DNA of 64,000 bases from Marsupella aquatica (Eukaryota > Plantae > Marchantiophyta), in the NCBI GenBank assembly GCA_973895155.1, contig OZ316891.1:15997037-16061036 (forward strand), written 5' to 3'. This document shows, piece by piece, positions 1 to 31,055 of the stretch. Below the pieces are notes generated by a model, which did no database searches, was not told the DNA's origin, and saw only the letters and a list, made by a program, of their open reading frames with translations. The stretch's first letter is position 1. Each line of letters opens with the position of its first letter. The position numbers and the translations under genes are program-made.

Positions 1-141
1 AGCAGCGCTCATCAAAAGTCACTGACATAATCAAGCTGGTGGAGAGAAAATACAGAATGCCAATGGAAAATAACACCAGCGCCGGGCGCTAACCAAACTG
101 CACAAAAATCAAGAAATAAATGGACACCAACATCTGTGGCG

Positions 142-2367
142 CTAAACAAAAAGACACCTAAATATCCAAACTAGTGAAGGGAAATACGGAATGCCAATGA
201 AAAATAGAAGAATTTCACGTTTATTCCTGGATCTCGTTGATGGGCTGGTTACTCCAATGTCTACTTTTGCTTTCGCCCGGGGTTTTTGACTCCTGTCTAC
301 ATGCAAAACTTCTGTTTCGCAATGTTTCTGTAGCTCGCTCGCCGAGGCATCTACATCTTCCGATAAACCTTGTTTCATTTCAGAGAGAACTTTCCAAGGG
401 ACTAAAGACTTTGATAATTTCAGAAATGCATCCTTTTCAGCTTCATCGAAAGGGGTGTCCCACTTATCTGTGTCAAGATACCATGGATAGTGGGTTATCT
501 CCCACAATGAAATGTCACGTGGTGGAACGTCCCCTTCGGCAGGGTACATTGAGTAAACTTCGCTAAAAGCATCCCCCTCTAGAACGGACCATTTTTGGAA
601 TGCAGGAGGGTAAGCCCAAAAATACTCTGGAGAACTGGTCTCCATCGCCATGTAGAAGCGATACAGATATCTCTTGGCTCGCTTCTGGTTGCGAATGGTA
701 TAGTCTTCCTTGTCTCCGTACTTGGACTGCCAAATTGTGCTAAAAAACTTTGCCTTCACTGTTTCACCGTATGTCTTGAAATCATTGGTGATGTTCAAGA
801 CCAAAGCTTCAAACGTCTCCACTCCTCCTAGCGTCAGACGATCAGCAGGTAGGATCGACTGGACTTGCGAAAGAGATGTCTGTAACATTGAAATTGCAAT
901 TCCTTCCACCAAACTCCACATGTGCCATGTATGACACCACTGTTTAACAAGGTCATCATTCACACTCGGGGGATGGTAAAATTGTTTTCTGAGCTCGGGT
1001 GTACAGTGAGCAACAAGAAGAGTACAGCGCAGTTGTGGATCCAAGTAGGAGACAGCAGTGAATAGATGCGCGCGGTCCATTGTACATACTACAGAGTCCG
1101 ACTTCTTTTCTCGTTTGTTCCTCTCCGTAAGAATGTACATTTCTGCACAAGTTGACAGAAAATCACCAAACTCTGGGCTTATCAGGGGGTAATCTTGGAT
1201 GTCTTTATGCTCCACTCCTTCGTTGCCTCCTTCATCATGGCAGCATACCGCTTACCAGTCTCTTCAGATGACCACGGGCGACCTTGACTTGTCGCAGCAG
1301 CCAAGTCAAGCTTAAATTGAAGTGAATACGACTTAATCTTGTTTTCACACAAGATGTAAACCAATGCTTCCAATGGCATCTGCTTGGTATACCAAGACCC
1401 CTTTCTTGTTTTGGCACGAACAGTTTGAAATCGCTTGAAGCTTCCGGGGTCGATGATCGGCTTTGTAGGCCTCCAAGTCATGAGTTAAAATCCGATTGAT
1501 TCTATCAGCATCGAGAATCCACAATGGTTCCACCACAGCTTGCCCAAACCTGTAAGGTATAATGGCAAATATTAGTGCCTGGCCGTAACTAACTTTGCAA
1601 AAATCAAGCGCAATCGACCAAATTCAATAGCGTTTATGCAACTTGAGGAATACTTACTGGTTCACCATGTGCATAGCTGCTTCAAGCTCAACTAGAGAAC
1701 CCTGATCTCCCTTAAAAATAGTGCATTGAACACGCGGATGGTACTTGATATTGTCTGGATTCTCATTTGTTACTTGGGTCCACGAGTAGAGTCGATGATT
1801 CCCATCAAAAACACAGAACATCTTATCCTTTAGAATGTGGAAATCTGGATCAGTAGCACATTCTGCTTCAAACAAGTTGTTCTGGGCAACCCAAACAGCA
1901 TCCCATGTCTCCCGAATTTCAGGTGTGCAGAATTGAACGACTCCTTCTGAATCCGTGGGCTGGACGTAAAACCGCATCCCAATTGAAGAGTTGTATCCAG
2001 AGCTCCGAAACGAATCCTTGAGCTTATCGATAGATGCACTATTTTTTTGTAAAGTCCAAACGATTTCCATGTGAACAAGCCGACAAAGAGGGATACGCGG
2101 CGGCTCTTTCTTCTCCCCTCTGAAATCGACTCCAAATGACATTGCGTATTTCTCAATCACAGCATCCATGGACAGGACTCCCTTGCCACCGTCCTCCATC
2201 GCAAAATCTCCGTATGACTCCATGATGCCTCGTTTTGGCTTTGAAATCGACTGACTAATGTTTCGCAAAGAGTTCGACGCAGACGAACGAGTGACTCTCC
2301 GAGTATAAACTGATCCGGAGAATGAGGACTCAGATGTTTCAGAATGGCCAGGAGAATGATTCTCCAT
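142..2367 (-). pseudogene. ParB/Srx-like N-terminal domain protein, spliced and frameshifted
   Basis: Exon 2367-1658 has FCVFDGNHRLYSW (DGxHR-type ParB/Srx motif). A GT-AG intron at 1657-1550 joins it in frame to FGQAVVEPLW. The downstream ORFs 1345-1536, 1182-1481 and 142-1215 overlap in different frames, indicating frameshifts. Confidence 0.6.
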
Positions 2368-3600
2368 GTTTGTTTAAGATGCACACACGGGGAACCCGCA
2401 CCTCAACGTGCTTCTTGCGTGATGCAATGTTTCTTGTGGTGTTGTACCGATATGGACGAATGATTGACAACGATCCTAAATGTGCGCAGAGGTCGTTCTA
2501 ACGATCAAGGAAGACACTATCACAAGAAGATCTTATCTGATATACCCTGTGGCAGACCGACATGTATCACAAGTACACATCGAAAAGCATGAGCATCCAA
2601 AAGCAGACCTACTAAAGGTTGACACTTGTCACATTTTAACTAGTTTATAGGTACTCATGAATATATTTATCCAGGAATTCGTTATAAATTGTAACGATAA
2701 ACGGTCAAAGTTACCGTTTAAAAACACTGTTTATGTCAGTATTCTACTTCGATCTAATATTAGCGCCTGGCGCTATTATTATGCTAGACTAAAATATATC
2801 TTAAAATGAAGGATTTTAATAATAGCGCCTGGCGCTAGTAACATTGTACTAAAAAATCATGCGAATGATTGGACTGAAGCGAGAAAGATTTTGTAATAAA
2901 CGGCTTCTATTTCTATAAAGAATATGAAAGTGCCAGGCGCTATTTTTTTTTTAGTCTCAAATAGGGAAAAAATGTGTAGATTTCAATAATAGCGCCCGGC
3001 GCTAGTAACGAGACACCTCAAAATGGTAGATGTTTGGACACGAAATGTGTAAGTTTCTATAAATAATGTACGAGTACATCTTGACATTTTAAAGAAATTT
3101 TATGATAGCGCCTGGCGCTATTATTGTGATAGCTTCTACTCGATCTCAAATGGATCGATTTTAATATAAGTAGAGGGTAATATTGTCGTCTGACATAAAT
3201 AAGGGGCTATTTCCATGGAAACCCGATATATTTCCAAGGAAACCCGAAACCTGTCGTAGAATGTTAACCTGTGTCAGTAACCAAAATGGCCGATGATCTT
3301 TGCTTTTGTTGTTCATTTTTTGGGCTCTTTCAGATGTGGAAAACGCTAGCGCCTGGCGCTACTATATTACCCCTTTGGTTACAATGTCAAAACCATTAAT
3401 TCTCCAGTAACTATCCGCCAAATATATGGTTTTGTCGTTTCTTGAACGGTAAGAAAATCCGTACCCAACGGATCCTATAACCGCTCGATGGCTCTTTCCG
3501 TTTGAGACTTGGATTTAGAAGAAACCCTCAACCATCCAAACTAGTTTCATTTTACAATGTATCATTATTTTATGTAGTCGGTTATCTTTGGGGAGTTAGA

Positions 3601-6600
3601 ATGTCTCGCATTATTGGAATAATGTGTCCGAATATAGGTGACGTTGTGACGATCCCTGTGTCGATTTCCAAAACCAAGAAACGTGTTAGTCATAATTACC
3701 TGTGTGGAAGATTTGGGGTGACGAGAAAACATATTTTGAGTATCAGAACTTTGAACGATGGGCCCGCTCATTTTGATACTGAAGCGGAGGACGTTGTTTG
3801 GAATCTCGAATATGGCGTGGAGTACTTGATTTTCATTCAACTAAGGGACATCGTTTATGTCAAGGTGGAGACGCATCAGGTTGCTCACGATGTGATTGAC
3901 CTTACGTCCGACGCTAAATGCTCTGAGGGTTCTCCACCAATCTCAAAGGGCGGTGAGGTCAATAAGGAGGGCGAAAGTACCAGTTTGTTGACGCCCCAGG
4001 TACTCCCCGTATTGATTGCGTCAGAGAAGTCTGATGATGGAGACACTCTAACTCGTCCTGTTCTGGTTGTGTACAGAAGAAGCGCACTTGATGCCTTGTT
4101 GAAGTCAACTGGACAAAGTGAGTTATCGCGCTTTGTTAGGTCTGAGGCATTCATTCACAAACAGGTTGAATGCTTACCTATAGAGTACAATGGGAATACC
4201 ATATTTGAGCTTCCACTTGTTGAAGGTGTTGGCTCGAAAGGGGATCGTCTACGAAACATGGATCGATGCAAGGACTGCTACCTCTAGACTAGAATCCTTC
4301 CTACTTCTGCTAATGTCGTTCCAAAGAAGATGTGGGAGTTTGGGAAAGTAAGCTGTAGTGGTTCTCTTGAATGCCGAAATAGAGCATGTGAGTTTTACAC
4401 CAGGACTCAAGTCAGAAACTGTAATGGATGGGATGGGACCCCCAAGCTCTCTGGTCAGCATTGTCCTGGGAGGTTTATCGATGCTGGAGGAATTGTTTGT
4501 CGCTATTGCCTTCAAGTTCCATTTTGTGTTGAGTCTTGTCCAGCAAAACTGTTTTATATGTACCCGCAAGTTTTGATCGAAAATGACACTGCAAAACACA
4601 TGTCACGACTTGCAATCCATATGGGAGTGCACAACCATCCATGTCGGAAGGTCTGGTCTAGAAGTGCTAAGAAAACAGCAATAGAAGAAATACGGAGACA
4701 ACATGAGAAGTCTCCTTCTACACCGTGCGTTTTGAAAAATGAGATCACTGGATCTTTAATGGATGCCGTAGGTGAGTCTATGGATGACATTTCAAAGCTA
4801 GAAGAATCAGAAATCTGGAAATCACTTATGCTCATTTCAACGCCTCAGAAGTTTTCTGCGTTATTTAAGAGCATTCGCAAAGATCAGGTTGGTCGAGGTG
4901 ATTTGGAATATCTGGTTTGCATGCAGAAGAATGTTACGTTTCCTTTTCTCCAAAGATATCTTCTTCCTGGGCAGGGCTGTAAAGGTGATAGAGCGCATAT
5001 TTTCAAAATGACTATCAAAGGTCATGGATCAGGAGTAGATTTACTGCGTCAGATGAAGAAAGGGGGGCCTCTAGAAGGAGCATGGGTGAGCTTTGACGTG
5101 ATGAAAAGGATGTCGAAAGAATGGAGTACTTTTAGTGCACATGTGTATGACCATAACTATCGAGCTTTGTGCACAATATTTACTTGTGAACTCAAAGCAG
5201 AGGACACTGCATCGCTTGAGAAAGCTTGGAGGTTGATGATCGAAGTCGCTTTGGAGAACGGTTTAAACGGTGTGGAAATCCATGGTTTCATGGCGGATAA
5301 CGCTCAGGCGGGATGGATAGCGGTTAGGAATGTCTTCTTTGACGGCCATCCAAACCCGGAGAGAGAGCGATCGGATGCATTCCACTTTTATCAGTCTTTG
5401 CATCGGCACTCTATCGAAGGAGTACTTGACAAAAAACGTGTTGAACATCGAATCCTTTGGGACAAACTGTTGCGGAATGCCGCTTCATTTGTGGAAGCCT
5501 ACAGGGTATCACGAGAGATTGATTCATGGTGGAGATCTGGAAATTGTATTCCTGGGAAACTTAGAATGTTGCAAGGATGGATCGCTTGGTGGGTTGTGAG
5601 GTGGCGTCAGTGGGGAAATTTCATACGTTTGGTGAGTCAATGTATACTAGCGCCTGGCGCTAGTATTAATATCCCTTTTCTAATTGTGATATTTACTGAT
5701 GTTTTTGCCAGCGTCTGGCGCTAACGTACGAATAGCTTGATAGCTTCTTCAATCTTCACAATAATCATGAAAACATTCATACCTTTCGTCCGCCCATTTT
5801 GAAGTTCCGCTTTATTTTTTATTCGCTATATTGTACTGAATTTGACAAAACTCTTTTTCAGAGCAAAAGTGCACTTGAAGGGGGGATGATTCCCAATTGC
5901 ACTGGTTCTGAAGCTGTTCACGGAATCATGAAAGCATGGCAGGGAAAGAAAACAGTTGGTTTGTTCGAAGGATGTAAGACCGATCACAACAGAGCAATCT
6001 CACAAATAGCAGCCTATACAGCATATCGTGAAGGGCTCCATCGGGGTACCGGTCCAACAGTGTTTGAATTGGCTTTTCGTTTGGCTGACCAAGCAGGGTC
6101 CCCGAAACTCTTCGAAGAAGCCTCTAATATGTTACTCGCAAATGCAGCAAAATTTGATTTGGAGAGGGATTCTCCATTGAATGGGGATTTTGTGACGAAG
6201 TCTATGAAAAGAAAAGGTCCGGCGACCAGGAATGTCTCTCCACAAGACTCCCATCGACATGACACGGTTCTCATAACTACGCCAAACACCCGAGGTTGCA
6301 AGAGGAGAAATTTGACCTCAGCCGAGTTTGAGCACATTCTGATACTTAGAACTCCTCCTTCGAATCCAGCTATCGATTTGTCTGAAAGTGGCTCTCCAGT
6401 TTCCCATCATGTCACTCAATCTTCCGAAGTTCCAGAAAGTGTTCCAAACACCACTCCATTCATTCCTGTAGACACTTCGCTTTTTGAAGTGGATGTTGTA
6501 CCCGGGTCGTGGCATTTGCGGAGAGTTTCCAGACACGGTGCTGGACCTCAGTGTAATGGGACGTTGTTTGGAAGTTGTGATCAAGATGAGTGTTGTAATC

Positions 6601-7355
6601 GAATTAAGAAGGTCGGATATCCTTCAAATGCAGGGGTTGTCGGAATAGTCGTCAAAGGTTACCGCTTATTTAGAGGTGAACACCATCCAGAGCTTGTCTG
6701 GTTCTGCCCCACTCGTGATTGCTGGAAGAGCCGCCCTCGTCAAGGTATTGTGAACCTCCCTACTTGCCCAGACTTTTTGCCAGTACAGAAAGGCACTCGT
6801 CTTTCAAGTCTGGAGTTGAATTTCCTTCACGAGCAGGGAATTGAAGTCTCGAGAGGAGGTGCTATTTCACGTTGTCCTTCTCCATTTGAACTGAGAATCA
6901 ACATTGACGTTTTCCCTGAAAAGATCGATCTTGCACAAGTCAACATCCATTTTCAAACAAGAAACGGGCGTGCGATGATCTCCAGATCAAATCTCACTCA
7001 GGAATATCATAAAAGGATTGAATCAGCAACGAAAAAAACAATGACTTTGATCAAAACTATGGAAGTTTCATCAGGAAATTCATACGGAAAACAATTCCAG
7101 ATACGCACACATGCACATTTACGAACTGCAAATACTTATTCGGTGCAGATTTGCATTTTCCCTTGTTGCTCTTGTGAAGATTTCTTTCGTCGACATTCTC
7201 GAGGGAAACCTTTCATGCCATGTAAACACTTGTACTGGGTTTACAAAGTTATCTGCAAGCTTGATCCTGTGGACAATATCCTCCCAAGCCAACCGATTCT
7301 TACCATTGCGGAACTGCGTTATATTCTAGCGAGGCAGAATGCTGATGGTTTATAG
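3601..7355 (+). pseudogene. MULE-type DDE transposase with N-terminal WRKY/GCM-like Zn domain and C-terminal SWIM finger; 2 exons, one premature stop
   Basis: ORFs 3502-4287 and 4330-5724 are in one frame across a TAG at 4285. A phase-0 GT-AG intron at 5632-5861 joins the 5799-7355 frame. Motifs: C-rich...GVHNHP, WVSFD, FMADNA, DAFH, TGSEAVHG, and CSCEDF-x-CKHL (SWIM). Confidence 0.8.
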
Positions 7356-8168
7356 GAAGGCTTAGTATTCTTGTTTACGTTCAACGGGTATGTTGGACTT
7401 GTCGTTTTGTAACGGTAACCTTGTTTTGGTTAGCGCCCGGTGCTAGTAAACAACATTTGGTTTCTTTTCAACACGGCTCAATGTTTTGTGGGTTGCACAA
7501 AAAACTAAATTTGTTTTTACAATTTTACGGATGTGTAAATTTCATTGTACGGGTCACTTGGACTTCAATTTTGTCACTTGGACTTCAGTTTTGTTAGCGC
7601 CCGGCGCTAGACTTCATTTCCTTACTTGGTTTCAGTTTGTAGTTTCCAGGTCTGAACGTGTGGATTTCTTTCGCATGCATTTTCGAGGATGACCTTTTCT
7701 TGCCTTAGAAACCGTTATCCTCTGATCATTCCGGTAGATGTTGAGCGGGTATTTTGTTAATGATATTTTGTAACGGTATCGAACGCTTGGTTAGGACTAA
7801 GCGCTAGTAAAGGCATCTTCCGATAATTGTCGTTTTCCCCATCTTTTTGAGTTGATGTTGAATTTGACCTCTTTGGTTTGGGTCAAAATTAAGCCGTTTT
7901 TTGTCAATGATAGTACAAATTCTCTTGTTTTGTTCAACTATTTTTCCTGTTATGATCATCACTGTTTCCTGTTTCTTGTCACGGAGGTCGGGCCCTCCTA
8001 AAACTAGAAGTTGACGCGACCTCCTCCACTTAGACACCTGTAAATGAACAATTCGATTCTCATATTATGCAATTGCAAACAACCACGCGACCGGGCGCGT
8101 CACTCCCAAAATATAAAGTTCAATTTCAATCAATTTATAAATAATAATTGATAATAAACAATAAACGT

Positions 8169-8939
8169 TTACTTATTGGACTTATCCCGGGCTTCTATAG
8201 CACGGTCTTTTTCGGCAAATAAGTATTTCATAAATTCGTCAAACTTTTCTAAATGGTCTTTATTCCCCTGATTACGAATGATCACATTTCTCCTCCAATG
8301 ATTCATCTTATCAATATAATCTCTCTCAAGATTTTCTTGAGAGAACGTTGGAATCCCATATCCACTAAGGAGCTCGTGGAATGTCAACTTGTCAATTGAC
8401 ATGTCGCATAGATATGGATATAGTTTCTTTCTAAAAAATAGGTCATCATCGAGCCCAGAATATGCATCGGGATACAACGATGAATAGAAGTCATTAAGGC
8501 TCGTCTTATACGCAGCATCATCGATAAGAATGACATTCTCGATGTTGTAATCTTTAATATCGGCGGCAATGTTGGAGAGACATTTGACAAATAAGGGGAT
8601 GTCATTATTATTCTTTCCAATAAGTTGAGTTGATTCTTGTCCCCATATAAATTTAATACGTTTCAAAACTTCGGGTCGAAGTATCAGCCTTACACAAGAT
8701 AGAATATTCCGTTTGAACATGCACGACCAGATCGCAATATCGTATAGATCTGCCACCTTCTCAAGAAATTCCATGAAATCAGGCCTTGGATAGATAACCT
8801 TGTGCATCTGTCTCACACCCCATGACCGAATGGGCATCCCAGGGCTGATCTTCTCTGACCAGATAAGTACCCGATTCAGATTGAAAATTACAAGTCTCTT
8901 TTGAACCGGTGACTTCTTTGCCGATGGATCAGGCGCCAT
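8169..8939 (-). CDS. FCP1/NIF-family HAD phosphatase-like domain (C-terminal part of the giant gene)
   Basis: KRLVIFNLNRVL (degenerate DxDxT/DLNG motif I), YPRPDFMEFL, YDIAIWS, FIWGQE, FVKCL, NVILIDDA. Confidence 0.8.
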   Translation of the reverse strand: MAPDPSAKKSPVQKRLVIFNLNRVLIWSEKISPGMPIRSWGVRQMHKVIYPRPDFMEFLEKVADLYDIAIWSCMFKRNILSCVRLILRPEVLKRIKFIWGQESTQLIGKNNNDIPLFVKCLSNIAADIKDYNIENVILIDDAAYKTSLNDFYSSLYPDAYSGLDDDLFFRKKLYPYLCDMSIDKLTFHELLSGYGIPTFSQENLERDYIDKMNHWRRNVIIRNQGNKDHLEKFDEFMKYLFAEKDRAIEARDKSNK

Positions 8940-9160
8940 CTATACCTGTGATGTTTGTGCCGCAGGGTTTGGAGAACATACTAGAACGATCTGTTTGTTT
9001 CCCACCTCCGAACGGTCACCGGACTTCCGGACTGGTGCCTTCGATACTCGATCAGGGGGTTTCAGGATAGGCTTCTGTAAAACATTAAGAAATGAAAATA
9101 AGTTTATAACGCGAACAGTCACGTGACTACAAAGAGAGACACTGAAATGAAGTGTATTAC

Positions 9161-9949
9161 CTGTACAAGACGGTTATTTAGTGTTGGAATTCTGCCAGAA
9201 ATGTCAATCATAGCAGCACGGATCCCGGTAACTAGGTTACTTAGGGACGTCGGCTTGCGGAAGTCCATGTCAAATAACGACAAGACTATCTCCCTACGGA
9301 ATTTCTCAATTTGATCCGCGGCAAAATTAATTTTGTTTCCTTGACACAAGCACTTGGCGTATCTCAAGATAAACACACCACAACTGTGGCCGTCACTCTG
9401 GTGAGGAATATCATTCCGATATATCCGTTCCCAACCTAAGAGATCCAAGTTGACACCAGTTCTCCAGCCAATTTCGTCGGCGTAGTACTTCCCAACAATA
9501 TCTAACACCCCAGGATTTTGTTGATTATGAACTAGAGAATCTAGGTACTCGAGCCGTTTCTCCTTCGGATACACAACTACCAATGACCAATGTTCTTTCA
9601 CAGCATTGTGTACTGGAAAGACCAGTTTGTCGTATTCACTGATTTTTAGCGGAAACTCCTTTGTCCAAGCTGCTCTCTCCTCATCGAAAATGGTAGGATC
9701 CATGGAGAGAAGCTCAAAATGGTGTGTTTGGAAGAATTTGACAAGGTCTGACTTTCCAACTCTATCGAGAATCAGTTCGAGAAAACTCAAATAAGCGTTA
9801 ATTATATCATCGGTGAGCAACTCGCGCTGTCTCAGACACATCATATGTTTCCTCTTGATCGAGTGTTGTAAGAACTTGGTCAATAGCTCTTCCATATCCT
9901 TAGAAGGATCAAGGCATTGATCTATTCGACTAGCCAAATTTTCAAAAAA
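9161..9949 (-). CDS. ULP1/SENP SUMO-protease (peptidase C48) domain exon
   Basis: LTDDIINAYL, VFPVH...EHWSLVV, YLDSL, PHQSDGHSCGVF; the His-Asp-Cys triad and oxyanion Gln are intact. Confidence 0.92.
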
Positions 9950-10974
9950 CTGCAAAAAACAGAGATTTCAGTACGCCTTCAAATAACGTACTGAGGTTGT
10001 AGCCTAAGGGTTCTACCTCAGAAAACAGAAACAATAACAAATCAATAATAAAATAATGACGTCTATAATAGAAACTTTAAGCTTATAGCTTGCAAATGAC
10101 CTTTGGATTGGGTGGATCCGGCCTTTTCGCAGCTGATCTCTTGGGTGCCTCAATCGCAACAACATCCTTCAGCCCTCCTCGAGACCACAGTGATCGCTCC
10201 ACCGGACCAGTTTGTGAAGTTTGGAGCGATGAGGCGGGAAGACCTTCAAATGGTTGTGGCATTTGATTCAAATATTCCACAATCTGGGAATCCGATTCCA
10301 AAATATCCGGTGCCACAATTTCTGCGTGAGTGACCTCTGCAATATATCGGGGTCGAGACCACAAACCCGGTCGCGTCAAGTCAGCTATTAGTCTCTTAAC
10401 GACTTGAGCCGAGTCTGGTGCCAAAGACGTTCCCAGGTCTTGCACTCGATTCTCGGAAAAGCGAACATTATTGATGATTGTCTCCATTCTGGATGCAATG
10501 GCAGTCTTCTCCTCGGTAATCAAAAGACCCTTCCAATATTGCAAAGCAAGGACTGCTTGGACTCGGAGCTGCTCCGGTGAATATTTATTCCAATCATCCA
10601 ACAAGACCATACTTAAGGGTGGATCGTTAAATTCAAACTCCGGGCGAAGAAAATAGTCTAATATTTTCTTCTTAACTACAACTGAGGGTGAAGGAAGAAG
10701 GCTTCTTCAAATTCAGCTTTGTTTTCGATAGACGTTGTGCCTCAGGAATAAGCAAAAGATCCTTGGCCCTCTCGGCCTCCTTCCTCGTTGCCTCCAGTCT
10801 TGCGGCTTCTTCTCTCTCCAGTCTTGCGGAATTGACCTTTTCCGCCTCCAACTTCTCCGCCTCCACCCTCTCCGGTCTTGCGGTCTCGTCCGCCATCCTC
10901 TCGGCCAGTAGCCTCTCAGCCGCCACACTCTCCGCCTTGGCCCTATTTGCCTGTCGCTAAAAGGACTCTCGCAG

Positions 10975-11440
10975 CCTCCACTTTCTCAGCCTGGGCTTTC
11001 TCAGCCTCCGCGTTCTCAGCCTTCGCTTTCTTGGCCTCCGCTTCCTCCGCCTCCGCTTTCTCAGCCTGGGCTTTCTCCGCCTCCGCTTTCTCAGCTTGGG
11101 CTTTCTCAGCCTCGGCTTTCTCAGTCTGGGCTTTCTCAGCCTCCGCTTTCTCAGCCTCGGCTTTCTCCACCTCCGCTTTCTCATCCTGGGCTTTCTCAGC
11201 CTTGGCTTTCTCCGCCTGGGCTTTCTCACCCTAGGCTTTCTCAGCCTGCGCTTTCTCAGCCTCGGCTTTCTCAGCCTCGGCTTTCTCAGCCTCGGCTTTC
11301 TCAGCCTCGGCTTTCTCCGCCTGGGCTTTCTCACCCTGGGCTTTCTCAGCCTGCGCTTTCTCAGCCTGGGCATTCTCAGCCTGGGATTTCTCAGCCTCGG
11401 CTTTCTCAGTCTAGGCTTTCTCAGCCTCGGCTTTCTCCTT
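10975..11440 (-). repeat. 15-bp coding tandem repeat (AEKAE/AEKAQ)n, coiled coil
   Basis: About 30 units of GCTTTCTCAGCCT(C/G)G on the + strand, adjacent to QEEAAR repeats and a D/E-rich tract. Confidence 0.9.
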
Positions 11441-12420
11441 CTTCTTTGCGGCAGTTGCTTTTCTAGCTGCCGCCTTTTTCTTCTTAGCCTCCTTCTTTTG
11501 AAGCTCCTCTTGCCGGGCCGCCTCTTGTCGGGATGCCTCCTCCTGCCGGGCCGCCTCCTTCTTTTGAAGCTCCTCTTGCCGGGCCGCCTCCTGCTGGGCC
11601 TCCTCCATCCGGGCCTCCTCCTGCCGGGCCGCCTCCTCTCTGGCCTCCTCCTGCCGGGCCACCTCCTCTTGGTCCACCTCATGTTGAGGCTCCTGTGTGG
11701 CCTCTTCATCAGAGTCCTCAGCGTCCTCAGAACCCTCCATCTCCTCGTCCTCTTCATCAGCGTCCTCAGCGTCCTTCATCTCCTCTTCGTCACTCTCTTC
11801 ATCTCCTCTATTGTCGGAATCTTCAACGTTGTTCTACGTATCGGTCATCCACTCTAGATCTTGGTCATTGACATCCCCATCCACGTCACCTTCCGCGTCA
11901 CCTTCCCCCTCACCATCCGCATCACCATTGCTCCCTGCATCCTCAACATCGAAGCCGCAGTCAACTTGATCTGAATAAAATCAGATCATTTGATAAGAAT
12001 GACTCACGCGCATATTCGCGTGAAAAGAAATGTTAAGAATGTCCACGCGCATGTTTGCGTGACGCAATAAAAAGTAAGAGGTTTCAAAAGTAACCTACCT
12101 TGGATTGGCCCACTAGGGTACTCCGTTGGTTGAATGTACAATCGATCAGAATCTTTAGAGAGTGCATACTCTTGCAATAATTGATTACAAATATTATCAG
12201 GGATATGTTATTCGCGGAGGACATCCAAAACATCAGCCCTGAGAGCAGTTACGGATGGACGGTACTTCATTAATTTATCTATACATTTTTCTATACTAGC
12301 CCGTACTGGGTCAATCAATGACAGCGTTGTATCAATTGTCGTCGTGGTATGTTGCAAGAAACAAGACAACTCCCTATGCGTTGTCACAGGGCAATAATAT
12401 TTTACATTGGATCCAGCATC

Positions 12421-13060
12421 CTGTAAAAAAAGCCGAAATTAGTTCACAATATTAATTGAGAATATAATAATCTAAATAATCTTAAAATCGAAACCCCAAA
12501 ATATAAATCTCAAAACTTACCATTAAGCACTGGATCAAGTTCGTTCCCTCACCAAAGCATATAGCCCATTCCCCACATTGGACAAATTGACTAACAATAC
12601 TTTCAAAGAATGGAAGTATCTTTTCTGGGGAAGGTGTCGTGAACTCGCCGCTCTCTTCAAAATTGGCTATCTTCTCAATCCGATATTTGGAGACCAATTG
12701 GAACTCGAGGGCTTGTGGATCGCCCATTGTGCTGAAGGCCAAGCTGTGAAAAGCGTAGGTTACAATAAGCTTCTTCTCCTTCGGCCGCTTCTGAATATAA
12801 TGGCTATCGACAGCAACGTAGTGTGTGTACTTCCCTAATTCCCGTTTGATTAAGTAAGACTCAATGGGAGAGGCTACAATAATAACCACATGGTGTGGTT
12901 TTGCCCCTATCTCGCTAGTAGCACGAAATAACCCCTCATAGAATGAGCAATTTGGCGGACGCAAATCTTCCATTGATGAGGGATCAAAATAAATCAAGCT
13001 TGCAAGGTTCTTGTCTTCACGTATGATACAGTCTGCAAACCCAGCATTTTGTATATCCTA
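12421..13060 (-). CDS. Degenerate beta-class N4C/N6A DNA methyltransferase-like domain (part of the giant gene)
   Basis: ASLIYFDPSS (compare DLIxTDPPY), GAKPHHVVII (compare LKPGGxxxI), and EKILPFFESIVSQFVQCGEWAICFGEGTNLIQCLM|DAGSNV (compare EKPxxLxxxxIxxxSxxGDxVLDPFxGSGTTxxAAxxLGR), in the beta-class motif order. Confidence 0.45.
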
Positions 13061-15285
13061 CAGGGATCGCAATTTCAGCCTCTCACCGACCGGCCGCACT
13101 AGTTGGTTTCCTTGACTATCAACTGATTTCTGTATTCCTTCCACCAACCTGTAGAATATCGGGTCGATCTCTTTCAACAAATTATCATTACTAATATTTA
13201 TATTTAAGCACTTCTTCAGATAACCACTCAACGCATCTCTCAACTGCTTCAGCACCATCTTGTCAAGCTTAAAGCGATCAATCATTCCTTTGACCCGCAA
13301 TTTCCGTGCTGAATCTGTCAGACTTTTCAGCTCCGTTCGGGTGGATGTATCCCCGTTGAGTTTACTCAATAATAAAATCTCAAACTCAACTTTCATCTTC
13401 TTCTTTATACAGAATTGCTCCAAACTCATGCTGGTCGTTGACAACACTGGAGCCTCAGAGGACTTCCTCGCCTTCCCAGATTTCACTTTGATGCTTTGGT
13501 TTTTGAGTATAGACAGTCTTCCGCTCAACATATATTCCGCTGCCTTTCGAAGAACCGAGTCTGAGCACCCTTGACAAGAACGGAACGTCTTCTTCAAAAG
13601 ATGATAAGCACATGGATTATCCACAATTTTGACGGCGCCCCTCTGTAAAATTCCGTTGTAAATTACAAGCTCTCCTATCCTTGATAGTACGTAGACCTCC
13701 ATCCACTTCTTGAATGTTTCGTCCTCCATTGTAAAGAGAAACGGAGCCAATTCTCCAAATTTCATCATTTCGTTCTTCCCCATTTGAGCCCATGGGCAAA
13801 CAAAACTCGTAGCTCTCATAAATACCTGAAAAACAATGGAAACATGACAATTCTAAGATTGACGCGACCGTTCGCGTGAGAAAAATTATAAGCTTGACGC
13901 GATCGTTCGTGTGACAAAAGTTTAAACGATAATGTGATCGAAGAGGGTTATTTATATACCTTCCAATTTGGATGACGATAATGTGATCCAGGCCGCCCAA
14001 ATGAGTTCCAGATATTACGACACTGTCGTACAATGGTGAGAAACTGTCCTTCTTCCATTGATGTTTGATGACAGTGGTTCAGAGCTTTCGATAATCCCAT
14101 CAAATGAACATTATTGTCGTTGTTGAGCGTTGCCCAAAACATTACAGCTTCTACAGTACCGCAAGTGTCTCGTCCAACTTGGCTGACTTTGTCGTCCTCT
14201 TTCAGCAATTTGTACGCCATTATTGTGTGCTAGCCTCCGAGTATCCAAAAATGACTGGTCATAATGTCCTCCTCCTTTGGCGCCGAATCGTAGGGTGCCC
14301 CATTGTAGTCGGGATCTCTGTCGGCCTCCGACTGAACCCACTTCACAGGGACTAAAAAGCAGCATCGCTTTTCAAACTTTATAGCCGAATGAGAGAGGAG
14401 TGAATTCTTTAGCCTATCTGTGTAATCCTGGTTCCACTCTCGGCACTTGATGTGGTCCGGTGCAAGATGACAACGTGATGTCTCAACAAAAAATGACTTG
14501 CTGTTAAATATATTCACAACATTATATTCTTTGAGGAAAGAATCGAACAGAGCCCTGACATTCGCTGAGGTAATTACTTTCGGAAGATTCTCCACCGAGT
14601 ATACTTCAACCTTGGTCACTGGCGGGGCCTTTCCCAAGCGAAATCCCTGGTTGAAAGGAACTCTCTGGAACTCAAGTACATCAATAATGTATTGACAAAT
14701 CAAATCTCCCGTTGATCCCTCTGGATCGGAAGGGTATCCCACACTAGTAACCTTTTCCAAGGCGTGCCTTGCACCTAGAAGATCATCGATTCTGGGCTGA
14801 TTGAAGGTTACATATTGCGTTCGATCCAAACAAATGCTTATTTTGTCCTCCTACTGGTCGTCGCTGACTAGCAGAACCAATCCCTCTGTACACTCTTTAA
14901 CTTTCATGCTCTTCTCAAAGAAACACCCAAGAATTTGTGATCTCTCCAAAACTGTAGCTTTATCATTTTTTGCCACCACAAGACGGACAGCCCCATTGCG
15001 AACAACTATTCCAAAATTGGATATCTCAGTCGATTCAAAGAGATGGATACTCTTTGTCTCCGTTGTTCTCTCTTTGATTGACTTTCCTCGATATGCAAGT
15101 ATGGATGTCTCCGCGGGAGTCATTTTTGTCTTGGCTTTCTTACGAGAAGCAGCTTAAGACGAGTTTTTTTCCCGCTTTGAAGTTCCAGTAGGATCCATTC
15201 TGAAACAGACAAATATTGAAAGTTAAATGTTTATTATAAAATACTAACACACGCATGGTCGTGTCATGCCGAATTACATTTTAGG

Positions 15286-17297
15286 ATGGCAGTGGTGTTC
15301 CCCATGGATCAAAAAGCAGTACGATCCTTCTTGGGCTGTGTAGGGTATTACCGTCAGTTCATTAAAGATTTTGCTAAAATAGCTTTGCCCCTAACAGAGA
15401 TGATGAAAAAGGATGCGGTGATCGAGGAGACCCCAAGGAGACGGGTTGCTTTCGAAGAACTCCGTAAAAGACTCACCACCGCACCTATCATGGTCACTCC
15501 AGACTGGAACAAGGAGTTCCACGTGTATGTCGACGTGTCAGGGTTTTGTATCGGGTTTGTGCTTAGTCAGCTTGATACAGACGGACGCGATCACCCCATC
15601 TACTTCGCTAGCCGACAATTATTCACAGCCGAAAAAAATTATTCCCCCACGGATCGAGAGGCACTGGGCATAATCTACTCATGTAAGAAGTTCCGGCACT
15701 ACCTGCTTGGCTACAAGGTCATCTTCCACACGGATCACGATAGCTTGAAGTACATGGTCAACAAAGCAGACGTAACGGGACGGATAGCCCGTTGCTACTT
15801 CTCCAGGAATTTAACTACAAAGTTCGGGTTCGGCCAGGAAAGGCACACCTCAATGCCGACTTCTTTTCACGGCTGGACGGTGTACCAGTCGATCAGCCAA
15901 TTGATGATATTTTTCCGGATAAGGAGTTGTTCCACGTAGGGGAGGGGACACCAACATGGTATGGCTCGATAATCACCTTCCTTTTAACAGGCTGCATCCC
16001 TAACGACATCAATCAGGAGGCCGCCGCTGTGTTTCTACGGAAAGCCGGGCCTTACGTCATGGTACAGGGTCACCTACATAAGGAAGGAGTTAATGGGAAG
16101 TTACGACGCTGCTTGGAGTATAAGGAGACGCTTATCGTGATGCGGGCCTTGCATGAAGAAGAAGCTGGAGGCCATTTTGCGGCGGTCACGACAGCTCGAA
16201 AGATTCTGGACTCGGGGTATTGGTGGCCAACGTTGCATCGGGATGTACAACGCTTCATTAAGGGCTGTGACCTGTGTCAGCGGGCTGGGGCCCCGAGACG
16301 GGCTCATCATCACCCGCTCACATCTGTGCTCCCATTGGCACCCTTCAAAAAATGGGGAATTGATTATATCGGGCCATTTACTCCCGTTACCCAAAGGCGA
16401 AGATGCAGGTACATCCTACTAGCTATTGATTACTCCACCAAGTGGGTCGAAGCACGGGCTACGGTAAAGGACGATGCCGCAACCAGTGCCAGATTCTTAT
16501 ATGAACAGATTTTCACCCGATTCGGCCCGCCCTTAGAATTGGTAAGCGACCGTGGAACCCACTTCCTCAATGACACCGTAGCCCAGCTTACGGAGCATTA
16601 CCTAGTCAAGCACCGCAAGACTACCCTGTATCATCCTAAAGCCAACGGGATGGCGGAGAGGGCAAATGGTATCATTGGGAAGATCCTCAACAGAACTGTA
16701 GCTGCGCACAAAACGGATTGGGATGATAAGTTGTACGCAGTGGTGTACTCGTATAATCTCGCTTACAAAACTACTACGAGTCACAGCCTGTACTTTCTCG
16801 TGTTCGGCCAACATTCGTTAGTGCCCGTTGAGTTTGAAGTACACACTCCACGAGTCAGCATTCGGGGTCGCTTACCTGAATCTGAAAGTTCGTCAGACCG
16901 AGCTTATCAGATTGAAGCCTTGGAAGAAGCACGGCTACTAGCAGCTCGACATGCCGTGAAGAAACAGGCAACTTCGAAGAAGCAGCACGACAAAGGACTA
17001 CGGAGGGTCGACGTCGTGGCAGGCGATCTAGTCCTTCTGTACGATAGTAGGTACATGCAGTTTCTAGGGAAGCTTCATACCCGGTGGTTAGGGCCCTTCC
17101 TTGTCAATCAGATCTACCGTAACGGATCTTTGGAGCTTGCGACGTATGCCGGCAATTTACTCCCCACGCGAATCAGCTACGATCGTGTAAAAAAGTACCA
17201 CCATCAAGATGACGCCGCCGAGAGTGATGTTCGCGAGGACGCTTCACAATTAAGCGGGGAGCTATGTGACGCCGCCGGTACGGCGGTTAATGAGTGA
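15286..17297 (+). pseudogene. Gypsy pol fragment (RNase H + integrase), frameshift near 15795
   Basis: VRSFLG..GYYR, VYVDVS, YSPTDREALGI, HTDH; HHCC finger (H..GGH..CDLCQ), KWGIDYIGP, SDRGTHF, PKANGMAER, WLGPF. Confidence 0.93.
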
Positions 17298-17621
17298 TTC
17301 GGTCTAACTGCGCTTGGCACGCGCGTTAGGAGTGTCTTAGACCGCTATTATTAGCATAATGACAGTATTTAGGTAATCATTATGGGTAGGATATCATTAG
17401 GCAATAAGGGGGGATTCAGGTTCGGACTGGCGGTTGGTCGCTATTCGCACACCCGGGTTACGAGCGTGGAGGGGCCCCTCCCTCGGGCCCGTATAACGAA
17501 CTTAAGGAAGCGGCCACTGACACGCGCTGACTTAGACCGGCGGAGTGGCCGGCACACCACAAGCGTGAGCGGTTCAGCCTATGGGCGTCGAGGAGACGTC
17601 GGGGGATCGACAAGCCCTCAA

Positions 17622-17632
17622 GGTATAAAAGG
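17622..17632 (+). promoter_or_regulatory. LTR TATA box
   Basis: GGTATAAAAGG, conserved as GGATATAAAAGG near 31780 in copy 2, about 110 bp upstream of the conserved ATG. Confidence 0.55.
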
Positions 17633-17731
17633 GGAGCCAACCCTTTGTAGTGCACCAGTCCATCAGTCCACGCGCCAGCTTCGACCCCAGCTCTCTCGTT
17701 CGCTCTAAGTCGCCACTACTATCTCCCCTGA

Positions 17732-20367
17732 ATGTCGCACATGATCCTCTCCAGCTCGGCCATTCAATTATGGACGCAGTTCCTATCTACCGGAAGGCAC
17801 TTGGCCGACTCATTGAAACACGCCAACCCGCGCCGATACGAAATCGAACGCGAGTACGAGAGACCCATCCGCCTAGCAGGACGACACCACTACATCCTTA
17901 ACTTTGACTACCCGTCTCAGAGCGAGCTTTACCAACCTGCAGAGGTATCCGGGTACTTCTTCAACGGAGACAAATATATCGGGTTCTGGGAAGCATTGCT
18001 TCGGCTTCCGGATGAGGTCTTCAATATCCCGGGTACGATCGACTTGCAGCGACATCACTTCGACCACATCCCTGCTCAGGTTCGGGCTATCATCAACAGT
18101 GAGTCCAGCACTACCCGTTCGACAAGGTCGTCTGCACTCACTTCGGAGAACTTCTACCAGCACCTACAGAGTTTCATAGTAACTCGGCCAGCAACCAACA
18201 TGACCAACTCAGTCGTACCCGTACCCGTACCCATACAACCTCAGGCTCAGCTTCAGCTTCAGCCTCAGCCGCAGCCTAGCCAAACCCCACCACCGATCGC
18301 CCAGCCAGCACAAGTACGCTCCGTCATCAACGTTGTGGATCTTAGCGATGACGACGAGGCTACCCTACCCTTGACCAGGCGGCCCAGAGGAGCAAGCGCT
18401 TAGGGGGCCAACACTATATCGTCCCCACCCCCTGCTCTGACCCCAGGAGCGGCCCCGGCAGACAACATGGTGACCGTGGCCGACCCGGGCCCGTTACGAA
18501 CGGCAGTGGCACTACCCAGGCCCGATCGGGAGGATGGGGAGGTGTCACCTTCCCCGAGCCAGTCACGGGGGAAGAAGAGGAAGGAATCCGCCACTGCATC
18601 CGGGTTACCGTTGGCCACGGTAGCCTGGCCAAGGTGACGATGCACCGCATGGGGGAAAACGTTCACAAAAACATCCTCCATCCCAAGCATGCGGTGTACC
18701 TAAAGACTCAGGGATTCGAGCACCTCGCCTCCCTCCCCTGGAACACTTGCAGGTACTACAGGGAGGACATGACGGAGTTCGTCAGGAATTATGACGACAC
18801 GCGTCAACATACTCGGCTGCGGGGAAGGAGTATGTCCCTCACGGAAGAACGGCTCAGGATGATCTTCGGGTTACCCGAAGGTGACCATCGAGTTGAATCA
18901 CGGGCTCCCGTGGGCAAGGGAGCCAAGTACCAATCTTCAAGTTTTCCCTCAGAGGGAGCAGTGGACAACGGGTTCGTGATGAAGACCTGCCTCATCCCCG
19001 AGATAGCTGAGCGACTGCAGTTCCAGAGGTACGCCCTCCACATGATGGAACCCCGGGGAGAGATCTCCGCCGCCCAGGTTATCCAGGTCGAGAACTATCG
19101 ACCTAGGAGGTGGGCGTCGTACTTCGCTAAGAAATTCCATGAAGAGATGGAGCGGCGAAGGAAGACGCTGTACATTGGCAGGAAGGCGTATTTTGCTAGC
19201 CACATCGAGATCATTCTTGAGTGGTATGCCCGGTTTGATCGACGAACCCTTCCCCGTGTCAACGTTACAAAACTGGTCCCAGCTAGGTGGGTTTTCCCGG
19301 CCTTGGAGAGGCGGCCCCAACCCGAGGCCCGAAGTCCAGCGAACACGCCAGCTTCACTCACCCCACCTCCACAAGTAGCTGTAGTTGTAACCGAGGAGGT
19401 ACCGGATGGGTCGGGCGTCGCAACCGTTGATGCGACCCCACAGGCCGGGCTAAGTACCGAAGTCGGTACGGTGGAGGTCTTACCCGAACCCGGTTCTCCT
19501 AAAGACCCACCGGTGGCTATTCCCGAGAACCGGACATTGCTACAGGAGGACGCTCCAGCCCCTTCCAACATTACGTCCCCAGGGCTGGACGTCACTGCCC
19601 CAGCCCCCGCGCGTGTTGACGTCTGCCCATGCCCAACTCCGGACAGATACAACTTGGACCACCCGGAACTCTTCGTACCGGGTACATTTCTGAACGGGCT
19701 TCTGGGAGAATTCTCTCATCAGATTGCCCGGGATACCGGGGAGTTCATGGCCCGGAAGGTAGCCTATTTCTTCAATCAGGAGTTGGTTGCCGTAGTAAAG
19801 GCAGGTCGGGCCCAGTCAAAGGCCCTTCAGAGGATAGAGCGATACCGGGTGGAGTCCGTGTACCTAAAGAACAAAGTTGCGGCTCAAGAGGCTGAGCTTC
19901 GGCAACTACGACCCAAGGTTGCAGCCGCCGATGAGCTGTTAGCAAAGGTGCACGCTCTTACCGCCCTAGCCGAACAGGCCAAAGCTAGGAACGAGGCCGA
20001 GATTACACGACTCAGGAACCAGATTGATAGTTTGAAGAATCAAACTGTCACCTGGCAGAAAGACCTGGAGGAGGCCGAGGAACGGGCCCAATAGGACACG
20101 GCGGAGATAGCCACGCTGTAGGCCGAGGTGGCGCGGCTCCAAACCGAGGCCGAGAAGCAGGACCAGCTGGCGGGTAAATTGACAAGTGACGCCCAGCAGC
20201 TGGAGGAGGCTTGTCAGGAGGCAGCAGAGGAGACAGACGCGGCGAGGCAAGAGAACAAATCTCTGCTGAACCAGGTCCAGCTCCTCAAGGCGGACAATGA
20301 CAGGCTTCGAAGGCAGCGGGATGGCCGCTCCCATTCGGGCGGCTCTGGCAAGCGTGCTAGGCATTAG
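17732..20367 (+). pseudogene. LTR-embedded protein of about 870 aa: plant transposon protein/PMD-like domain, Pro-rich linker, C-terminal coiled coil
   Basis: One reading frame broken by TAG codons at 18401, 20092 and 20119 and a 1-nt deletion near 18624 (intact in copy 2). Motif GFEHLASLPW...EFVRNY...LRGRSMSLTEERLRMIFGLP. Confidence 0.75.
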
Positions 20368-21329
20368 CAGCAGAGTAGGAATAGATTAGGATTAGGACGG
20401 GCTTAGTCAGGCTCTTGGGACAGGCACCTGCCTTAGGTACAGCAGCGCTGCCGTGTTGTCCAGCCTGCGTAGATTAGGATCTTCTAATAAGACACAGCCG
20501 TTTTCCGGCCTGACTATCAGCTTAGTTAGGACCTTAGTCAGCGAATCTTCGGCGAGAGGACACCCCATCCCTCGTCCCTTAGTATTTAGTGCACCCCTCG
20601 GTAGAGGCCCACGGGGTTTTTAGTTGCAAAGTTGGGCGTCCGCGGTATGTGCGGGGAGTCCCGACCTCTAGGAATGAAAGAGTACCAAGGGGAGGGGGTA
20701 GGACTAAGCTCGCCGGGCGAGTGTGGAGCCGGGCTCCATTGTAGTGTGCACCATCGGCCTTGAACCTGTTCATTCCGGGGCTGTCGGGTCAACTAAGTGT
20801 ACGCATATGTTCCCTTTGCAGTAAAATCCTTTCCCATCATTTTCCTTTGTGTAAATCGAGATTGTATGCATGTGCGCATGTATGTGTGTGGGTTTCTCGT
20901 ATATGGGTGGCAGCGCCAGGCCGAACGCACTACCCGAGACGTGCACAGGGTGCAGCCTGCGGGTAAGTGGTTGCGAGCACGGGTTGAGGACCTGTATCAT
21001 CAAATCCGGATTGAAGGCGGATAGCACGAAGGCTTAGAAGCCCTTAAGCCAGGGTCGATCCTGTTATCAACTAAGATACGTTCCGGCGGCGGAACACAAA
21101 CCATACCTAGGAGGTGTCCATATTTAGCAGTATGCGCACTTAGCGCTAGTTTACGAGAGTAAGGTGCATTACGTGCTTCCCTTCCTGCCCGAACCACCAG
21201 ATTTACGAGGGATGTGACCGTCTAAGCTGAAGTCTGAGTTAAGGCCGCAGCCGATGACGTGACAATAAACAATTCTTTGAGAGACTGTGATTTTTTGGGG
21301 TCACAACGTGACAAATCATAAATGTTGCT

Positions 21330-21820
21330 TCGTCCTCTAATAGAACCAGTCAATTAAAGAGCTACCTCAAACGCGACTGGTCGCGTCAACTGATCCTAAA
21401 TGGAACGGTACCTCCTCTAACAAAACCAATCAATGAGAGATCTACCTCAGACGCGACTGGTCGCGTCAACTGATCCTAAATGAAACCTTACCTCCTCTAA
21501 CAGAACTAGTCAATGAGAGATCTACCTCAGACGTGACTAGTCGCGTTAACTGGTCCTAAAAGGAACCTTACCTCCTCTAACAGAACCAGTCAATGAGAGA
21601 GCTACCTCAAACGCGACTGGTCGCGTCAACTGAACCTAAACAACTATATCCACTGAACCTTCCTTGTGGAGATTTGGATATGGTACGCGCTTAGTAAATC
21701 TATCCAGTTTCCTTCTCACACGCGACTGGTCGCGTCAACTGGTCCTAAAAGGAACCTTACCTCCTCTAACAGAACCAGTCAGTGAGAGAGCTACCTCAGA
21801 CGCAACTGGTCGCGTCAACA
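21330..21820. repeat. 80-bp tandem repeat, each unit carrying palindrome B
   Basis: Palindrome recurs at 21371, 21451, 21531 and 21611 (period 80), then at 21720 and 21800. Confidence 0.92.
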
Positions 21821-22926: not shown

Positions 22927-23200
22927 GAGCGAGAGTGAGAGCGACAAGAGCGAGAGCGAGAGCGACAAGAGCGAGAGCGACAAGAGCGAGAGCGACAAGA
23001 GCGAGAGCGACAAGAGCGAGAGCGACAAGAGCGAGAGCGACAAGAGCGAGAGCGACAAGAGCGAGAGCGACAAGAGCGAGAGCGACAAGAGCGAGAGCGA
23101 CGAGAGCAAGAGTGAGAGTGACAAGAGCGAGAGCGACGAGAGCAAGAGTGAGAGTGACAAGAGCGAGAGTGATAAGAGCGAGAGCGAGAGCGACGAGAGC
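22927..23200. repeat. 15-bp tandem repeat (GCGACAAGAGCGAGA)n
   Basis: About 18 directly visible units. Confidence 0.93.
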
Positions 23201-30671: not shown

Positions 30672-31055
30672 CTACAACTGCAAAACCTGCAAAGTAGCAC
30701 GGTGTCTTGAGAAACTCTCCAAAGGAATTACTTTGGTAAAGGCATCAACGGGATTAAGCTTTCCATCAATCTTGACTAGCTCAAAAGTTTTATCAGATAC
30801 TACTTGCCTGATAAAATGGTACCTGATATCAATGTGCTTCACCCTGCTATCCATCACCTGGTTAGCAGCCAAGTGAAGAGCACTCTGACTATCACAATTT
30901 AGAGTCATTTTTCCATGCTCTAAACCCATCTCCGCGATCAACTTGTCCAACCAAATTGCTTCCTTTGCTGCTTCTGCTACTGTAACATACTCTGCTTCTG
31001 TAGTAGACTGAGATATACACTTCTGCAAGGTAGATTTCCAGCTGATAGTTCCTTT
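30672..31055 (-). pseudogene. Copia RNase H
   Basis: ISWKSTLQKCISQSTTEAEY, CDSQSA, KHIDIRYHFIR, NPVDAFTK. Confidence 0.95.

Follow-up and report, generated by a model that had tools for sequence, protein, structure and literature searches.

Two nested transposons with predicted ParB-like genes and palindromes of their own in the liverwort Marsupella aquatica

Introduction

Transposon proteins with a ParB-like domain that may recognise their own element were proposed in 2025, as a hypothesis, for red and brown algal transposons. Here we describe a candidate land-plant counterpart in a stretch of 64,000 nucleotides (the window) from the liverwort Marsupella aquatica (contig OZ316891.1, positions 15,997,037 to 16,061,036), in which two decayed DNA transposons, called element 1 and element 2, each carry a putative ParB-like gene (gene 1 and gene 2) and a palindrome (A and B). 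In Ectocarpus, the accessory protein of the Sola1-1_Ec32 transposon is described as a 1104-aa protein joining a ParB-like domain to an N4C/N6A methyltransferase, encoded opposite the transposase, and is called a "possible novel class" in a text that cites Iyer et al. 2011 (PMC12477816). In the Plavaka elements of Bostrychia, the ParB-like accessory gene PAG3 lies adjacent to inverted-repeat arrays, and a self-binding hypothesis has been advanced for it; the same text states that no transposon group other than the VANDAL elements is known to bind its own sequence and modify it (10.1101/2025.02.11.637652). The VANDAL protein VANC is reported to bind motifs in introns and intergenic DNA, and some VANC genes carry a Ulp1 domain (PMC5735166, PMC13317346). 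VirB of Shigella is described as a ParB-type anti-silencer that works by loading and sliding (PMC10770331), and ParB-type helix-turn-helix fusions of algal methyltransferases, of a different architecture, have also been reported (PMC4738411).

The system described here resembles VANDAL in logic and would work like the proposed algal self-recognition, and is neither a ParABS system nor a VANDAL element. We did not find the land-plant, Mutator-borne and Ulp1-fused form, or the turnover of motifs reported below, in print. Our searches found no land-plant papers on such ParB-like transposon genes, subscription literature being mostly outside the search, and no paper holding both DUF3723 and ParB in the literature searched; ParB is not mentioned in 10.64898/2026.05.21.726589.

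Results

Structure of the locus

We identified two distinct decayed DNA transposons, of which element 1 is inserted in element 2 at 7995/7996, and we hold this with high confidence (Table 1). The initial annotation, made from the letters alone, had described a single transposon; this part of it was overturned, since public-run contigs end element 1 at 7995 and carry element 2 leftward of 7996. In the contigs on 7300-8500, the loose ends past 7995 varied (agreement of 0.55 among four contigs of run X1 and 0.68 between two contigs of run X4), and before 7996 one common loose sequence was present in runs X1, X2, X4 and X5 (agreement 0.97-1.0). These varied flanks and the one common sequence therefore indicate an element that ends at 7995, occupies many insertion sites and lies here in a second element. 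The junction of the window itself is bridged by a single X4 contig (7953-8030). Summed contig depth climbed over about 7915-7995, the pattern expected of a terminal repeat common to more copies, and contig depth was not taken as copy number. Many variant contigs covered 1-15300 in four public runs, and thus both parts are multicopy. All genes of the window copy contain stops or frameshifts, and both ParB-like genes are pseudogenised. We also observed that a subterminal stretch, 7921-7984, is common to other contigs that end in different sequence, which suggests related subfamilies or the other terminal repeat.

The transposase of element 1 has a Cys/His-rich GCM-like N-domain, a D..D..(C/D)xFH..W..E core and a C-terminal SWIM-like finger, and shares with its relatives the motifs FD, FMAD, CLFHW/DAFHF, E and CSC..PCKH. 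Because Pfam gave no match at E<=10, its Mutator label comes from motifs read by eye: we take the core to be a DDE core with C(2)H and a W signature, followed by a SWIM finger, and the GCM label is likewise our own reading. Of the 80 gene 1-family loci, 6 carry a transposase homolog that lies upstream of the ParB-like gene in divergent orientation.

The Ty3/gypsy fragment, which the initial annotation had not mentioned, matched RT_RNaseH (E 1e-31) and rve (E 4e-10), and a related copy is present at 31042-35315.

Gene 1 and its relatives

A HMMER search returned 208 homologs of gene 1 at E<=0.001, the named ones from Riccia sorocarpa and Adiantum species. Neither ParB-like domain of the window was named by Pfam, NCBIfam or PADLOC, weak hints only being obtained (DGQHR, E 0.15; a ParB-like PHROG, E 0.047); sequence searches of the Protein Data Bank (PDB) gave chance matches only, and a word-index search for homologs of gene 1 exon 1 gave nothing among longer proteins. 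A model of the gene 1 N-domain built from 111 sequences reached a pLDDT of 92.6, and its top Foldseek rows were nearly all Noc, ParB, KorB and sulfiredoxin (prob up to 0.97). The VIA structural search returned 13 chains at Z>=2, of which 12 were of ParB/Srx type, as judged by their titles and known families; the matches included KorB (best, Z 7.5, rmsd 2.6 over 91 residues), PadC (7.1) and sulfiredoxin (6.4). A ParB/Srx fold of gene 1 is supported by this modelling. Residues G141, N142 and H143 were each found in at least 90% of the 111 sequences, R144 in 92/108, R56 in 82/97 and N188 in 76/89; R56, GNHR and N188 occupy what we take to be the nucleotide pocket of ParB/Srx proteins, and the predicted fold would thus include a conserved pocket (R, GNHR or GQH, N). 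The window copy carries W at position 56.

The nucleotide domain is followed by a conserved helical block; by tblastn, the Riccia proteins P0023, P0028, P0032 and P0153 matched a helical region at 217-1463 of the window. In full-length Riccia relatives, the helical region is followed by an N6_N4 methyltransferase-like domain. Fern relatives, too, have such a domain at their end, without the DPPY motif. P0153 matched PF01555 at E 5.2e-5 with 23.7 bits, below the curated cut-off of 26.7, and proteins of this type also matched a PHROG DNA methyltransferase (E 8.7e-7) and PADLOC MTase_II (E 1e-4). In active beta-class N4C/N6A methyltransferases motif IV reads (D/N/S)PP(Y/F/W). The motif IV exon gave 38 matches in the 80 loci, with duplicates and split frames counted and most loci being decayed copies, and reads D-[VILMF]-P-x (DLPT, DMPS, DVPS, DIPE, DFPI), with no DPPY among the matches listed. 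The methyltransferase fold is probably catalytically altered.

Relatives of gene 1 were found in none of 56 candidate stretches in viral contigs and none of 34 in prokaryote genomes, and no ParA ATPase was found among the window segments scanned, both elements being incomplete in the window. Among individual homologs, the Adiantum protein P0127 (658 aa) has a Ty3 gag domain preceding the ParB-like domain in one gene model, which may join two elements. The Riccia proteins P0151, P0153 and P0154 bear the UniRef name trimethylguanosine synthase, yet match N6_N4_Mtase, and the name is likely a mislabel.

Gene 2 and its fused domains

Splice signals allow gene 2 to be read as one gene of about 2150 codons, in which the Ulp1 domain is predicted, from the same signals, to be fused to the upstream exons. 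The identities of the Ulp1 and NIF domains are firm, and the NIF/FCP1-like domain carries NLNRVL in place of DxDxT. At 14232, where the window copy has a stop, other copies encode an amino acid, and they also differ at 14853. The four homologs P0156 and P0162-P0164 read GGQHT at the corresponding box (FWILGGQHTIMAY).

The ParB/Srx fold of gene 2 is more weakly supported than that of gene 1. Its first domain had DUF3723 (0.95) and phage ParB_N (0.92) as Atlas neighbours, without a Pfam DUF3723 match, and aligned with the gene 1 family by hhalign at E 0.026-0.042 with motifs in register. The methyltransferase-like region at 12524-13057 is a lead only: all of its Atlas matches were N6_N4_Mtase (score 0.85) and its motif I aligned to the gene 1 family (E 0.026), while motif IV reads DPSS in the window copy. 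No match to this region was found in Pfam, NCBIfam, PADLOC or PHROG, by BLASTP against P0153, or with the motif IV profile of the gene 1 family.

Both proteins are predicted to begin with a ParB-type domain, and each likely continues into a methyltransferase-like domain. The initial annotation had called both genes ParB-like; this holds well for gene 1 and less firmly for gene 2, and a ParB/Srx-type N-domain was retained in the context of ParB-methyltransferase-type fusions instead of plain ParB proteins. It had mentioned neither the methyltransferase-like domains nor the Ulp1 and NIF/FCP1 domains.

Palindromes in the window

Motif A, TAGCGCCNGGCGCTA, had 12 matches in the window at <=2 mismatches, 11 of them in 77-7609 and one at 51835, compared with a mean of 0.04 and a maximum of 1 in 100 shuffles. 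Motif B, ACGCGACNNGTCGCGT, had 9 matches at the same tolerance, all in 8085-21815 (shuffles: mean 0.02, maximum 1), and 13 non-coding copies at <=4 mismatches. The initial annotation had given about 12 copies of A in 77-7609 and about 13 of B in 8085-21815, in sets that do not interleave, and both the counts and the separation were borne out by the match positions; the territories are separate because they belong to two nested elements. It had also confined the copies to introns and intergenic DNA. With exon borders predicted from splice signals alone, no overlap with predicted exons was found for any of the 11 A copies or the 7 dispersed B copies (chance about 2e-6 and 3e-7, respectively, given the non-coding share), so that the claim stands for these, while a B half-site at 10361 (4 mismatches) lies inside a gene 2 exon. 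The cores of A were conserved in 10-11 of 11 copies at most positions and the flanks were not, and in dispersed copies of the palindromes generally the cores were conserved and the flanks were not. The 80-bp array is presumed to belong to gene 2 from the shared motif, as the gypsy fragment lies between the two. Two motif-A-like copies at 51835-51930 lie centrally within an inverted-repeat structure (50264-52611) that showed no blastn similarity to 1-8100.

Table 1. Coordinates of the features of the two elements and of the retrotransposon fragment in the window
Feature	Position	Strand	Remarks
Element 1, Mutator-like DNA transposon	1..7995		left part past window edge; right terminus 7995, ending GGTCGGGCCC
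Gene 1 exon 3 start	1-21	-	gene leaves window at left edge; methyltransferase-like domain there in relatives
Gene 1 exon 2	about 219-1549	-	helical region, frameshifted; predicted splice sites
Gene 1 exon 1	1658..2367	-	disordered N-terminus and ParB/Srx-like domain (IPLCRL..., FDGNHRLYSW, MHMVN)
Transposase pseudogene	3601..7352	+	divergent from gene 1; one intron 5632-5861
Palindrome A, 11 copies	77..7609		77 in gene 1 intron
Palindrome A, shared promoter region	2761, 2823, 2928, 2990, 3106, 3347		
Palindrome A, transposase intron	5648, 5709		
Palindrome A, 3' region	7431, 7595		
Palindrome A, weaker copies	1573, 7792		
Element 2, multicopy	7996..21850		broken at 7996 by element 1; public-run contigs
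Gene 2 last exon, linker and NIF/FCP1-like phosphatase domain	8169..9074	-	PF03031 E 6.1e-10
Gene 2 Ulp1 (peptidase C48) domain	9161..9949	-	PF02902 E 6.6e-20; His, Asp, Gln-x5-Cys kept
Gene 2 acidic and AEKA-repeat region	10085..11969	-	frameshifted
Gene 2 helical and N4C/N6A methyltransferase-like region	12099..13825	-	latter about 12524-13057; IYFDPSS, CFGEGTN
Gene 2 first coding exon, ParB/DUF3723-like domain	13958..15199	-	RCHLAP..CR, FWILGG*HTIMAY
Palindrome B, 7 dispersed copies	8085..15264		8085 is 3' of gene 2; 15249 in 5' intron
Palindrome B, gene 2 introns	9109, 12006, 12045, 13862, 13897		
80-bp tandem array, six palindrome B copies	21333..21829		putative 5' region of gene 2
Ty3/gypsy retrotransposon fragment, 5'-truncated, ~6 kb	15282..21263	+	between gene 2 and B array; outside system; borders by eye

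Palindromes at related loci

The 80 loci of the gene 1 family came from metagenome contigs (717,607 bases) and formed 51 clusters after merging of duplicates. Motifs A and B had no match in them at 2 mismatches, nor did gene 2, Ulp1 or NIF match any of the 80. Different palindromes were found at these loci: in L006 a GGTGCC-N-GGCACC palindrome recurs 16 times, some copies lying upstream and others inside a downstream intron, and L023 carries TTCGGCGCCGAA. Most other loci hold AT-rich decayed copies, most of which were missed by a strict palindrome scan and recovered by a scan tolerant of C-to-T decay, with patterns including AACTTTcggcgccgAAAGTT, CATATGcgTcgAcgCATATG and gGCCAAgcTcgAgcTTGGCc. 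The tolerant scan covered 36 loci of >=2.5 kb (L035 and L039 being one cluster, and the distal control counting 35) and located the clusters immediately upstream of the ParB-like domain and again some 2.3-2.8 kb downstream of it. Windows with >=4 copies per 2.5 kb numbered 15/31 upstream and 8/21 downstream, compared with 1/48 in distal windows and 0/16 in controls from the window sequence. The positives include 25-bp tandem arrays with a palindromic unit, of up to 34 units, observed in the downstream intron zone of L013, L028, L040 and L043; that of L028 runs from +2100 to +3470 relative to the ParB-like match.

Motif types tracked the clades of the ParB-like domain tree, with 10 changes for 11 types on 23 rows, compared with 12-15 in 1000 shuffles; this count leaves out 20 of the 43 tree rows, which had no motif label, and uses the labelling made before L052, L059 and L077 were relabelled. 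Because kin share labels, the fit shows turnover of motifs with palindromic form and position kept, and does not show co-evolution. The idea of one palindrome per ParB-like gene, put forward in the initial annotation, gained support from the finding that related genes have clusters of different palindromes around them, and from the fit to the protein tree. As to the co-variation of motif and protein that it had suggested examining, types did follow clades, and co-evolution as such was not demonstrated.

Other features of the window

Long inverted copies were observed at 26269-29881 and 37265-40883 (73-98% complementary, with arms reaching 1287 nt), with long open reading frames (ORFs) lacking a Pfam match and with nested copia and gypsy pieces between them. 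A ceramidase-family ORF at 54699-55238 (minus strand), intronless over 180 codons (PF05875, E 2e-28), is probably a host gene. A 15-bp tandem repeat at 22872-23247 is open as SESDK repeats on the plus strand.

Discussion

The explanation that we consider best overall, and on balance probable, is that of nested transposons which each encode a ParB-type protein that binds its own palindrome, probably countering silencing. That each ParB-like protein would bind the palindrome of its own element is the part of this we regard as quite likely; anti-silencing as the purpose is suggested more tentatively, at slightly less than even odds, because of the parallel with VANDAL in its intronic and intergenic tandem-amplified motifs, repeat-rich proteins and Ulp1 fusions. 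A protein dimer would load at palindromes in the promoter and introns and perhaps close on nucleotide and spread along the DNA, as we suppose because ParB, KorB and VirB load and slide in this way. The C-terminal methyltransferase fold, probably catalytically altered, would thus be brought to the chromatin of the element, to which the element 2 protein may additionally deliver a SUMO protease and an FCP1-like domain. Family-specific palindromes would keep each protein's action within its own family of copies, much as VANC motifs do in VANDAL elements. In its fullest form the proposal is speculative and on present evidence doubtful: transposons of seed-free land plants would encode a nucleotide-gated sliding clamp of bacterial type, with a private palindrome for each family, and this clamp would spread along the element and undo silencing by bringing to it a methyltransferase fold of the base-flipping kind, together with a SUMO protease and an FCP1-like domain. 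It would be a eukaryotic VirB convergent with VANC and KAONASHI of flowering plants. If this reading as a clamp is true, a nested element would still be read by its own protein.

Several observations weigh against this interpretation. All Foldseek E-values for gene 1 were >=0.07, with none at E<=0.001, and the best VIA score, with none at 8, falls in the middling range of that tool; the gene 2 profile matches were weak (probability 1-2%) and a single-sequence model of its homolog P0156 reached a pLDDT of only 35.3. Canonical ParB box II is GERRxRA, and the corresponding box reads DGNHR in the gene 1 family and GGQHT in the gene 2 family. No helix-turn-helix was identified, a PDB profile search of the region after the nucleotide domain being empty, and the methyltransferase part of gene 1 falls outside the window. 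Among gene 1-family loci, the transposase is present in only 6 of 80 and 16 of 31 upstream windows lack a cluster, and the fit of motifs to the tree is expected from simple descent. Finally, the palindromes of old related copies carry many C-to-T and G-to-A changes, a decay of 5mC type, and their sites were therefore methylated at some stage, which speaks against lasting protection.

Other explanations of the palindromes were considered. An active DNA methyltransferase might be guided to the palindromes and deposit 4mC or 6mA on the element that encodes it, either to block host 5mC or as a mark of self, in keeping with the N6_N4_Mtase matches in relatives, a partly retained motif I (DFAGGWG, DWNASTG), motifs rich in CG and CCNGG, and the same hypothesis as given in the text on the Ectocarpus protein (PMC12477816); we regard this as unlikely, as motif IV is altered in the relatives (no DPPY among the matches listed) and in gene 2 (DPSS) and the Pfam match falls below its curated cut-off. 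About as unlikely is the idea that the palindromes are sites of the transposase, bound by its GCM-like N-domain for autoregulation or pairing of ends, with the ParB-like gene as linked cargo. Motif A does occur in the promoter region, intron and 3' region of the transposase gene, and an Arabidopsis Mutator transposase reportedly activates cognate copies sequence-specifically (10.64898/2026.08.24.746577), whereas in L060 the transposase is found 5.3-6.6 kb upstream and the clusters occupy -1450 to -760 and +2490 to +2640 relative to the ParB-like domain, the final 385 bp before the terminus hold no strict A copy, and in gene 2, where no transposase is in view, motif B occupies the introns.

An architectural function for the ParB-like protein in transposition, compacting the element and pairing its ends without effect on silencing, would suit long elements, given that ParB proteins bridge and condense DNA, and motif A occurs on each arm of element 1 in the part that is visible; the concentration of clusters at the promoter of the ParB-like gene and in its introns, and fused Ulp1, FCP1-like and methyltransferase-like domains that point to chromatin or transcription, make it improbable. 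We give very little credence to one transposon with both ParB-like genes and two territories, as in the initial annotation, for although genes 1 and 2 adjoin in the window and an X4 contig spans 7995/7996, the varied flanks past 7995, the one shared and different sequence before 7996 in four runs, and the 0 of 80 gene 1-family loci matching gene 2, Ulp1 or NIF contradict it. Still harder to credit are functionless palindromes multiplied through tandem duplication: six B copies and many in relatives do sit in tandem units, yet dispersed copies retain just the core, copies avoid exons, and palindromes differing in sequence recur throughout the family.

Returning to the self-binding proteins that we favour, one of the closest described counterparts, by architecture and not by sequence, is that of Sola1-1_Ec32, which likewise joins a ParB-like N-domain to an N4C/N6A methyltransferase domain in about 1100-1200 aa, is transcribed opposite the transposase, as in element 1 and 6 of 80 loci here, and has been suggested to bind the element that carries it and to modify it (PMC12477816). 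This pair of domains is present in relatives of gene 1 and is a lead only in gene 2. The present system differs in its land-plant host, its Mutator-like transposase, a motif IV that is not DPPY and the Ulp1 and FCP1-like domains added in gene 2, and palindromes are unmentioned for Ectocarpus in the text available (PMC12477816). PAG3 shares a ParB-like domain beside tandem arrays of inverted repeats, and is explicitly compared with VANDAL, whereas it is described as fused to a 2OG oxygenase, with the methylase as a separate gene, PAG2, in an EnSpm/CACTA host; a comparison of motif with protein, as made here, is absent from the Bostrychia text as available (10.1101/2025.02.11.637652).

With VANDAL/VANC and KAONASHI of Arabidopsis our elements share a putatively Mutator-type host, family-specific tandem-amplified motifs in introns and intergenic DNA, repeat-rich protein regions and, in a subset, fusion to Ulp1, while the reported VANC motifs are 9 bp in one orientation, compared with palindromes of 15-24 bp and a predicted ParB-fold protein here, and anti-silencing has been demonstrated for VANC and is proposed here by analogy (PMC5735166, PMC13317346). 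The Pfam scan of the window found no VANC-type domain under the names known to us. With ParB/parS, KorB, Noc and VirB, our proteins would share the fold of the N-domain, and palindromic sites of about 16 bp cluster near the gene, as is a trait of ParB systems; they differ in the DGNHR or GGQHT box, a 30-residue helical insert, no identified helix-turn-helix, no ParA seen in the scanned segments, a C-terminal methyltransferase-like domain and the presence of introns. Among named Atlas clusters, those of fungal DUF3723 proteins (PF12520) come nearest to the gene 2 domain, which differs in having no match to the Pfam family.

In conclusion, the ParB accessory proteins of algae are a candidate second self-binding system of transposons, and the present locus, together with its relatives, carries that candidate into land plants, which have strong 5mC silencing. 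About ten motif types are tied to protein clades, and palindromes A and B would form a natural specificity pair from one genome; the self-recognition hypothesis is therefore directly testable by swap experiments. Potentially, orthogonal pairs of ParB-like proteins and sites that work in plant chromatin could also serve as targeting tools.

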